Shown one piece after another: positions 15,450 to 16,635 of a DNA stretch of 64,000 bases (positions are counted from its first letter, which is position 1; each line of letters starts with the position of its first letter). Where the stretch lies: sequence record PQ765507; one strand, given 5' to 3'. A program made the position numbers and the translations under genes. The notes beneath the pieces are model-generated. The model did no database searches, was not told the origin of the DNA, and was given only the letters and a program-made list of their open reading frames with translations. Source of the stretch: Escherichia phage 212.

Positions 15450-15692
15450 ATGGAAACATTAATTGCGGGTACTGTTGTTCTTGGTGCAGGTTCTTTCTTC
15501 CTGGCTGCACTGGCATATTTTCTGCCGTGGATTATCGCGCTACTGCGTGGAACCAAAAGTAATTGCGGAATCTTCTTTGTTAACCTTCTGTTAGGTTGGA
15601 CAATGGTCGGATGGTTTATTGCATTTATCTGGGCACTCGTTGCTGAACGTAAATCAAACGCACAAGTAATTATCATCAAGGAAGCAAAATGA
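15450..15692 (+). CDS. imm: superinfection immunity protein Imm-like membrane protein
   Basis: 80 aa, two TM segments, motif FFVNLLLGWTMVGWFIAFIWAL typical of Imm family; position downstream of 43. Confidence 0.65.
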   Translation: METLIAGTVVLGAGSFFLAALAYFLPWIIALLRGTKSNCGIFFVNLLLGWTMVGWFIAFIWALVAERKSNAQVIIIKEAK

Positions 15693-15832
15693 AGATAATT
15701 ACAATTATTGTACTGATTGCATTTTTTAGTATGTCAATCTACTGGGCAATAATGACTCCACATATGATTCCAACTTTAATTTTGGGTTGGGTATTTTTGG
15801 GGCTCCAAGCCCGCTATGAATGTTTTAATTGA
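15689..15832 (+). CDS. small membrane protein (47 aa), not in ORF track
   Basis: Hand-translated MKIITIIVLIAFFSMSIYWAIMTPHMIPTLILGWVFLGLQARYECFN; ATGA overlap with imm stop. Confidence 0.35.
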   Translation: MKIITIIVLIAFFSMSIYWAIMTPHMIPTLILGWVFLGLQARYECFN

Positions 15833-15842
15833 GGAAAATATA

Positions 15843-16346
15843 ATGAAAAAGTTAGCGATTGCTGCAGTTCTGTTATTGTCTGGTTGTGCTTACCAGGGTG
15901 ATGTTGTTAATGCCAACGAAATTGGTAAAGCGCGAATTGCTGCAGACCGTCAGGTGCATAATGGTTCCTTTGATTTCAAAGGTGGCACTGGACTTATCTA
16001 CAAACGCGACAACAATCAATGTGGAAACAACTGCGCGAAATATGCTCAACAAGAAATTGAGTACAAACGCGAGCAAGCTGCGAAGCATGACGAAATCATT
16101 GCCAAGCTGGAAGCAGAAACCAAGCGACAAAATGACCTGGATACTGTTAACCAGATTTCACAGGTCTGCATGTCATATATCAATATGCAGATAAACATCA
16201 TGCGCGCAGAAGCTTATCAGGCGGCGGAGACGGGTTCTCCAAAAGCTAATGAGTACCGCGATATGTATCAGCGTTCTGCTCAAAACCGTCTGAGCTATAT
16301 TAATAAATGTGTAGCTAAAGAGAAAGCACGCCAAGGTATTAACTGA
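15843..16346 (+). CDS. predicted lipoprotein (signal peptide + lipobox LSGC)
   Basis: MKKLAIAAVLLLSGC.. after GAGGAAAA RBS; mature part has Cys pairs and a charged helical stretch. Confidence 0.55.
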   Translation: MKKLAIAAVLLLSGCAYQGDVVNANEIGKARIAADRQVHNGSFDFKGGTGLIYKRDNNQCGNNCAKYAQQEIEYKREQAAKHDEIIAKLEAETKRQNDLDTVNQISQVCMSYINMQINIMRAEAYQAAETGSPKANEYRDMYQRSAQNRLSYINKCVAKEKARQGIN

Positions 16347-16608
16347 TGTTATTATTACTTCTGATTGTTGTAACAGTAATTGGTTTGTTGCTATTAGAAA
16401 AGCGTAATAAGCATTTGGCTGAAGAAAACTGGAAACGTGGTAACGTTTACTAAATTTCCCTGAACTGTGAGAAGAATATTATGATTGGTATGTTATTGAT
16501 TAGCTTATGGCTGTTGTCTGCATTTGGTATTGGGTTTATGTACTGGTGGGACAAACGTCAGACCCGGAAGATTGTTGAACGTGCAATTAATCGTGGATTC
16601 AATCGTTA

Positions 16609-16635
16609 ATTGCTCTAAAAATACAGTGATATAAT
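16609..16635 (+). promoter_or_regulatory. candidate middle (MotA-dependent) promoter upstream of uvsX
   Basis: TTGCTCTAA MotA-box-like element about 12 nt upstream of TATAAT. Confidence 0.35.

Follow-up and report, generated by a model that had tools for sequence, protein, structure and literature searches.

We analyzed a 64,000-nucleotide (nt) stretch of DNA from Escherichia phage 212 (sequence record PQ765507; this whole stretch is the window below) and, within it, the 1.3-kb slot between gene 43 and uvsX. The slot is probably the Gaprivervirus version of the early envelope-gene block of phage T4 (imm.1, imm, and 42.1), in the variable region between 43 and uvsX. The identities of its parts are firm: it encodes the superinfection immunity protein Imm, the mini-protein gp42.1, a lipoprotein that we class as a long-form relative of T4 Imm.1, and two short peptides from cassette genes. 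Each of the five is either an exported or a membrane protein. The arrangement is ordinary and has already been sequenced, and Imm alone has an established job, which is to block the entry of DNA from later-arriving phages. That the block forms a composite exclusion module beyond Imm itself is plausible but unsupported.

Five genes between gene 43 and uvsX

There are five intact open reading frames (ORFs) between gene 43 and uvsX, all on the + strand (aa, amino acids):

15450-15692, + strand: imm; 80 aa, inner-membrane superinfection immunity protein with two hydrophobic segments

15689-15832, + strand: gp42.1 homolog; 47-aa hydrophobic mini-protein, translationally coupled to imm

15843-16346, + strand: Imm.1-family lipoprotein precursor; 167 aa, lipobox LSGC with Cys15

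16346-16453, + strand: 35-aa cassette gene; N-terminal membrane-spanning segment (MLLLLLIVVTVIGLLLL), then a charged and basic tail

16481-16609, + strand: 42-aa cassette gene; N-terminal membrane-spanning segment, then a strongly basic tail (DKRQTRKIVERAINRGFNR)

A first-pass annotation of the window had described these ORFs as an Imm-like protein downstream of 43, a 47-aa membrane peptide coupled to it by an ATGA overlap, a 168-aa lipoprotein with an LSGC lipobox and several cysteines, and two short membrane peptides (35 and 42 aa) before uvsX. We recovered all five at the same coordinates and on the same strand. Family matches, hydropathy, and the pattern of substitutions, which are given below, bear out this description, including the lipobox and the cysteines; only the length of the lipoprotein had to be corrected, to 167 aa from a start at 15843.

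By nucleotide identity, the genome is a Gaprivervirus, with its relatives VR7, SP18, and RZ at 92-97%. The slot matches 33 phage records at 79-98% identity, and all of these are gapriverviruses or close relatives (Straboviridae, Tevenvirinae), including VR7, SP18, RZ, and TH44. The gene order that is annotated in relatives is 62 - regA - 43 - imm - 42.1 - ORF049c - uvsX - 40 - 41, and the part from 43 to uvsX (43-imm-42.1-ORF049c-uvsX) is annotated in VR7, RZ, and EAWsc9.

The five ORFs are real genes, and not chance frames, because they are intact wherever they are present in eight related phages and because the differences are mostly synonymous. The sole apparent exception to their integrity is the 47-aa ORF of UPEC01, which is a partial genome. 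For all five ORFs, nonsynonymous differences (pN) are far below synonymous differences (pS), so purifying selection acts on each of them.

The Imm homolog and gp42.1

The 80-aa protein is a true Imm homolog. It matches Pfam family PF14373 with 64.2 bits (the cut-off is 27.9 bits; E = 1e-17; profile positions 2-42 of 42) and phrog_1039 (E = 1.9e-30), and it is 51.8% identical to T4 Imm over the full length of both proteins (80-83 aa). Its hydropathy plot has two hydrophobic windows, at residues ~3-35 and ~39-65, and its pN/pS ratio is well below 1.

The 47-aa ORF begins within the end of imm, where ATGA (15689-15692) joins its start codon to the TGA of imm. Its product is gp42.1: it matches phrog_3610 from end to end (E = 7.6e-27; positions 1-47 of 47) and is 53% identical to T4 gp42.1, and the annotations of VR7 and RB3 name this ORF 42.1. 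Hydropathy places a hydrophobic segment at its N terminus. Using tblastn, we found homologs in 573 phage records and examined relatives from eight genera. Eight sequences from seven genera share Y18, P24, MIPT26-29, W34, Q40, and C45 without exception.

T4 itself has an intact 49-aa 42.1 ORF that is coupled to imm by the same ATGA, but it is unannotated in RefSeq NC_000866.4 (locus L017, 4728-4877, - strand). The overlap is also present in RB3, and ATGA coupling of imm to 42.1 occurs in three genera. In EcS1, PEi20, PM2, and CHI14, 42.1 is coupled to kpsF instead. In UPEC01 (locus L010, 609-751), the alignment of 42.1 starts only at residue 13, and the annotated length is 33 aa, which reflects either a truncation or a sequencing error in this partial genome.

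A lipoprotein related to T4 Imm.1

The lipoprotein gene starts with an ATG at 15843, with GAGG 8 nt upstream, and relatives annotate the identical 504-nt gene. As a lipoprotein signal, we accepted a basic N terminus and a hydrophobic core followed by [LVI][ASTVI][GAS]C, with the cysteine at position 15-35. The signal peptide (MKKLAIAAVLLLSGC) has K2, K3, and the lipobox LSGC with Cys15, so it satisfies the bacterial lipobox pattern. Prediction of a lipoprotein signal was among the checks proposed by the first-pass annotation; the signal is canonical, and the lipobox is retained in 25 of 26 family members. The residue after the lipid-attachment cysteine (+2) is alanine. By the E. coli +2 rule, a lipoprotein with alanine there is expected to go to the outer membrane, which is thus the predicted destination of this one.

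Four more cysteines are found at positions 60, 64, 109, and 156. The invariant residues of the family are G48, G50, Y53, C109, and C156, and C60 and C64 (motif CGNNC) are jointly lost in two members. Because C109 and C156 are invariant, and because C60 and C64 are lost together, the cysteine pattern fits two periplasmic disulfides, predicted to be C60-C64 and C109-C156. The AlphaFold model of the lipoprotein (mean pLDDT, 76.7; above 90 for residues ~95-160) combines a flexible tether and a helix with a beta-hairpin (residues 41-55) and a helix of 68 residues, highly charged in its first half, on which two more helices pack. The periplasmic part is thus predicted to comprise, besides the beta-hairpin and the CGNNC motif, a stalk helix that is charged and a head of three helices.

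The family is small and narrowly distributed. An exhaustive profile search of 1.84 billion representative proteins yielded only 19 family representatives, none of which is obviously bacterial. These proteins are small and have lipoprotein-like signal peptides, except for one 1,550-aa protein that matches in multiple stretches and looks spurious. Wherever we could assign a family member to a deposited genome, that genome was of a T4-like phage of Enterobacterales, and a word-based search for wider homologs found 11 proteins. The family occupies the same slot in phages of seven host genera (Escherichia, Serratia, Enterobacter, Edwardsiella, Pectobacterium, Erwinia, and Kosakonia). Within the genus, pS is 0.10-0.25 and pN is 0.003-0.011, for a pN/pS ratio of 0.03-0.06. 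Pfam, NCBIfam, and PADLOC contained nothing that would suggest a function for the lipoprotein or for the three short peptides. We dismissed sub-threshold matches to FerB, DUF553, and a type VI secretion system (T6SS) immunity lipoprotein as noise; the T6SS match covers the signal peptide only.

Several lines of evidence connect the lipoprotein to Imm.1. T4-type Imm.1, whose gene lies between 43 and imm, is a lipoprotein too (MKIAILVIALGLTGC/VAQGPVVNQSDVGK...). Both proteins belong to phrog_1754: the lipoprotein of phage 212 matches it with E = 4.8e-47 (positions 2-147 of 148) and Imm.1 of RB3 with E = 1.5e-43 (positions 2-148 of 148). When the lipoprotein family was aligned to Imm.1 by hhalign with the signal peptide included, the probability was 96.4% (E = 1.3e-9) across the N-terminal 51 columns. 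The HMM and hhalign matches span an N-terminal motif of the mature protein, G(D/P)VVN..(E/D)(I/V)GK, and in an extended alignment the invariant C109 and C156 pair with C89 and C120 of Imm.1. In the Karamvirus CkP1, a clear member of the lipoprotein family (E = 1.9e-23) is found in the position of imm.1, in the order 43 - lipoprotein - imm - 42.

Two results count against this kinship. First, hhalign on the mature parts alone gave a weak match (E = 1.7e-4, probability 49%). Second, the lipoprotein does not match Pfam DUF5481 (PF17578) at E up to 1, and T4 Imm.1 matches it with 239 bits; other long-form members of the family do not match it either. Because phrog_1754, hhalign, and the CkP1 gene order all link the lipoprotein to Imm.1, but DUF5481 does not recognize it, we class it, from sequence comparison, as a long-form relative of T4 Imm.1 and not as a member of DUF5481.

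The two proteins are alike in having four cysteines beyond the lipid-attachment cysteine. They differ in that T4 Imm.1 has just 126 aa and lacks the CGNNC motif and the long charged helix, both of which are present in the 167-aa lipoprotein of phage 212. The T4 RefSeq (locus L017, 5137-5514, - strand) labels imm.1 as "iduronate sulfatase," but the product is a 126-aa lipoprotein with Pfam domain DUF5481.

The slot in other T4-like phages

The genes that follow gene 43 vary between genera as follows:

Tequatrovirus (T4, RB3): imm.1 - imm - 42.1 - 42 - beta-gt - (segA) - uvsX

Karamvirus (CkP1): lipoprotein - imm - 42

Dhakavirus (JS98): imm - 42.1 - lipoprotein - RB69-type modification genes, including a 42 homolog

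Gaprivervirus (phage 212): imm - 42.1 - lipoprotein - (35 aa) - (42 aa) - uvsX

Winklervirus, Kanagawavirus, Mosugukvirus, and Kagamiyamavirus: lipoprotein - kpsF - 42.1 - large ORF, without imm in the slot

Mosigvirus (PhAPEC2): kpsF - 42.1

The T4 block occupies the same slot as the block of phage 212, with a similar promoter-like site after 43 and with Imm and gp42.1 that are 52% and 53% identical to those of phage 212. The order is different, in that the lipoprotein gene follows 42.1 in phage 212 and does not precede imm, as imm.1 does in T4. Also, T4 has 42, beta-gt, and segA, which are absent from phage 212, and phage 212 has two extra cassette genes. In the Dhakavirus JS98, ORF045c-043c (imm, ORF044c, and ORF043c) give the identical order of 43, imm, a 42.1-like gene, and the lipoprotein gene; its lipoprotein is 52% identical and its Imm is 68% identical to those of phage 212. 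In JS98, however, RB69-type modification genes including a 42 homolog come next, instead of two cassette genes and then uvsX.

Within the gapriverviruses, the block can vary as a whole. In VR25, the imm/42.1/lipoprotein block (locus L012, 362-1249) is just 70-77% identical to that of phage 212, against 96-99% for the adjoining ends of gene 43 and uvsX. Given this difference between the block and its flanks, the three genes were swapped as one unit, so that the entire block is an allelic replacement. VR7 diverges in imm only (87%).

The first-pass annotation had placed the cluster where T4 carries 42 and beta-gt. Both genes are indeed in the T4 slot, but so are imm.1, imm, 42.1, and segA, and three of the five genes of phage 212 have T4 counterparts in the same slot, so a reading of the cluster as a replacement or a novel module is not supported. 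Phage 212 does lack 42 and beta-gt. When we searched the 64-kb window with tblastn, we did not find any homolog of T4 gp42, beta-gt, kpsF, or the arabinose-modification genes of JS98 and RB69. Published comparisons describe the absence as genus-wide: gapriverviruses lack dCMP hydroxymethylase, yet they have dCTPase, denB, and alc, and the base in their DNA has been suggested to be unknown (PMC8056088, PMC12115623). The absence of the hydroxymethylase despite the presence of dCTPase, denB, and alc is a larger puzzle than the envelope block itself.

We also considered whether the cluster makes up for the absence of the modification genes, and rejected this idea: every one of the five products is either exported or a membrane protein, and T4 has counterparts of three of them together with 42. 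What remains is the envelope part of the ancestral slot, which stands alone in gapriverviruses for want of the modification genes (42 and beta-gt, or the arabinose set).

A possible role in superinfection exclusion

By homology, Imm would reside in the inner membrane and stop the transfer of DNA from superinfecting T-even-type phages. The lipoprotein might contribute from the other side of the periplasm. It would be exported, lipidated at Cys15, and sorted via the alanine at +2 to the inner face of the outer membrane, and it would present a disulfide-stabilized helical head, on a charged stalk, in the periplasm. There it could perform the periplasmic side of Imm's task, by shielding the infected envelope from later phages and not by masking a specific receptor. 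We offer this role for the lipoprotein tentatively, as the most plausible one, but consider it less likely than not. gp42.1 and the two cassette peptides would be small inner-membrane proteins. In the most elaborate version, Imm and gp42.1 in the inner membrane and the lipoprotein anchored in the outer membrane would form an envelope-spanning device that intercepts the tail tube or the DNA conduit of superinfecting T-even-type phages, and the 35- and 42-aa peptides might tune its specificity. We think that such a device is improbable.

A second envelope factor beside Imm would have a precedent. In T4, Imm has a partner in exclusion, Spackle (Sp), which inhibits the tail lysozyme gp5 in the periplasm. 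Spackle resembles the lipoprotein in being an early periplasmic protein of T-even-type phages. It differs in being soluble, non-lipidated, and encoded elsewhere (near gene 61 in CHI14), and none of the searches that we ran found any similarity between the two. We also looked at the Emp peptide of mosigviruses (2026 preprint), which is unrelated: it is a 109-aa protein encoded beside a gene for a MotA-like regulator.

A composite exclusion module has in its favor the proximity of the lipoprotein gene to imm in four genera, the ATGA coupling of imm to 42.1 in three, and the exchange of the three genes as one unit in VR25. Several observations weigh against a T4-type block whose genes work together. 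The first-pass annotation had proposed that this slot be compared across T4-like genomes, and the result of that comparison was mixed: the lipoprotein gene adjoins imm or lies near it in four genera (Tequatro-, Karam-, Dhaka-, and Gapriverviruses), but in four others it overlaps kpsF, and there is no imm in the slot. In the Winklervirus CHI14, there is no imm within 23 kb of the slot. In mosigviruses, 42.1 follows kpsF and imm is found ~10 kb from the slot; because of this separation, the mosigvirus imm seems to have moved independently of its T4 neighbors. Across genera, therefore, imm, 42.1, and the gene for the lipoprotein have not been inherited as a set. The RB69 group is reported to lack Imm.1 (PMC5885020). 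More generally, that genes are neighbors in a variable region says little about whether they share a function. Literature searches for Imm.1, DUF5481, gp42.1, and the lipoprotein returned one mention in comparative genomics and no functional work, and fold searches with the lipoprotein model (against PDB and BFVD) gave no informative match and hence no functional lead. Finally, Lu and Henning reportedly found in 1989 that plasmid-borne T4 imm is by itself sufficient to exclude T4.

The strongest alternative is that the five genes are unrelated accessory genes that share a variable slot, and that only Imm excludes phages. The other genes would then have roles such as the timing or inhibition of lysis, control of host periplasmic enzymes, or evasion of defenses. 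This would account for the coupling of the lipoprotein gene to kpsF in the four genera that lack imm in the slot, for the position of 42.1 after kpsF in those genera and in mosigviruses, and for the independent gain and loss of the 35- and 42-aa genes. It also suits the PeSL-type element that bounds the slot (see below), as such elements are associated with gene shuffling in the variable regions of T4-like phages (PMC4122927). On the other hand, the proximity of the lipoprotein gene to imm in four genera, and the replacement of a three-gene block as a unit in VR25, speak against unrelated neighbors, and the family and fold searches gave no positive evidence for any alternative function. We consider this explanation to be a serious possibility, but not the likely one.

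Another alternative is that the lipoprotein is a receptor-masking exclusion factor, like Llp of T5 or Cor of T1 and phi80, that binds the phage's own outer-membrane receptor from the periplasm and prevents adsorption or triggering. Llp and Cor (the latter from T1, phi80, and N15) are similar to the lipoprotein in that they are small phage lipoproteins whose site of action is the envelope of the infected or lysogenic cell, and a predicted outer-membrane lipoprotein that is apparently expressed early has their general design (PMC9586334). However, we found no relationship in sequence or fold. The match to the Cor family, PHROG 1119, is confined to the signal peptide (residues 2-18; E = 0.012); no fold related to Llp or Cor was found in PDB or BFVD; and there was no match in Pfam, NCBIfam, or PADLOC. 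The lipoprotein gene is not located beside receptor-binding genes, and its family occupies the same slot in phages of seven host genera. Also, its low pN/pS ratio within the genus indicates strong purifying selection; the adhesins and receptors of T-even-type phages change quickly by comparison. Because the lipoprotein is strongly conserved, both within the genus and across phages of many host genera, a receptor-specific mask is disfavored, and we consider it quite unlikely.

Last, we find it hardly credible that the 47-, 35-, and 42-aa ORFs are chance frames in spacer DNA that encode nothing: although they are very short and A+T-rich, and several GenBank records leave them unannotated (including the T4 RefSeq, for 42.1), they are intact in the carriers examined (with the apparent exception in UPEC01) and differ mostly at synonymous sites, the 47-aa protein has residues that are invariant across seven genera, the cassettes are gained and lost exactly at gene boundaries, and the starts are coupled to upstream stops or preceded by purine-rich sites.

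Expression signals

The slot is bounded by two promoter-like sites:

15384-15412, + strand: early promoter-like site with an internal hairpin (PeSL type), TTTACA-17 nt-TATGAT, directly after the gene 43 stop

15390-15407, + strand: hairpin in the promoter spacer, ACGGCAA-TGGA-TTGCCGT

16611-16635, + strand: middle-promoter-like site for uvsX, which closes the slot; TGCTCTA (16611-16617), 12 nt, TATAAT (16630-16635)

The early site scores 10/12 in a consensus scan. The pattern GTTTACA-N17-TAT(G/T)AT with a spacer hairpin is also found after gene 43 in Gapriver-, Dhaka-, Winkler-, and Mosugukviruses, and T4 has a promoter-like site upstream of imm.1. In T4 and PST, the PeSL consensus is TTTACW N17 TAYWAT plus a stem-loop, and these elements mark variable regions (PMC4122927). 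The site at 15384-15412 agrees with this consensus and is located at the edge of a variable region.

The sequence of the spacer hairpin varies by genus while the pairing is kept: it is ACGGCAA/TTGCCGT in phage 212, CCAC../..GTGG in JS98, CHI14, and EcS1, and TCACA/TGTGA in PM2 (the loci compared were L005 3563-3628, L007 4949-5012, and L015 2421-2482). Because the pairing is maintained across these differences, the structure appears to be conserved via compensatory changes. The gene 43 transcript probably has its 3' end at this hairpin as well.

A terminator scan of the block found one consensus match (15769-15791), versus 1.1 expected, and it lies inside the 42.1 coding sequence. Because there is no convincing terminator before uvsX, the five ORFs look like one transcription unit. 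No known RNA families were found in positions 15200-16800. The site before uvsX is invariant in nine related phages. TGCTCTA-12-TATAAT is a putative middle promoter with a MotA-box-like sequence; in the T4 pattern, a TGCTT-type MotA box lies ~12 nt upstream of the -10 box. The T4 middle-promoter pattern is also mentioned in PMC4122927.

The cassette genes

The 35- and 42-aa genes are strain-variable cassettes that are present in some relatives and absent from others. The 35-aa gene, whose start overlaps the lipoprotein stop (TGATG), was found in 11 phage records, all of them gapriverviruses or close relatives, and is cleanly absent from the rest; in relatives that lack it, the lipoprotein gene ends in TAA. 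It is intact in every carrier that we examined. The 42-aa gene was found in 16 records of close relatives; its absence from the others does not track that of the 35-aa gene. All four combinations occur among relatives (both genes, either one alone, or neither), with boundaries exactly at the ends of the genes. Compared with four carriers, the 42-aa gene has 18 synonymous and 4 nonsynonymous differences (pS, 0.08-0.23; pN, 0-0.02).

The 35-aa gene has no family match in Pfam, PHROG, NCBIfam, or PADLOC, and neither peptide has relatives outside this group except for one weak dhakavirus match to the 42-aa protein. The region around the start of the 42-aa gene (16465-16492) is a 28-nt direct repeat, at 79% identity, of the uvsX leader (16651-16678). 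This repeat may be a recombination substrate for the gain and loss of the cassette.

Implications

As it stands, the slot of phage 212 matters little: 33 phage records already contain this gene block, and its parts are from known T4-like families. The comparison does allow the "hypothetical" lipoprotein of seven groups (gapriver-, dhaka-, karam-, winkler-, kanagawa-, mosuguk-, and kagamiyamaviruses) to be described as a relative of T4 Imm.1, and it adds to T4 itself an unannotated gp42.1 gene coupled to imm. In the literature that we searched, we did not find any test of the lipoprotein, Imm.1, or gp42.1 in exclusion. Because phage 212 lacks genes 42 and beta-gt, it presents the trio in isolation. 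In gapriverviruses, with no DNA-modification genes next to the block, deletions and clones would be easy to interpret, which makes these phages a clean system for studying Imm.1 and gp42.1. If the envelope-spanning device were real, then T4 exclusion, which has long been attributed to Imm and Spackle, would gain two overlooked components.

A putative homing endonuclease gene between regA and 43

Outside the slot, a 265-aa ORF (11783-12580, + strand) lies between regA and 43. It has an I-TevI-type DNA-binding domain at its C terminus (PF20987, E = 6e-8) and a His-rich N-terminal part, and it looks like a free-standing homing endonuclease. In a megablast search, no phage record matched this insert, and only its flanks were matched. 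In VR7 and RZ, the same position is occupied by a 71-aa ORF.

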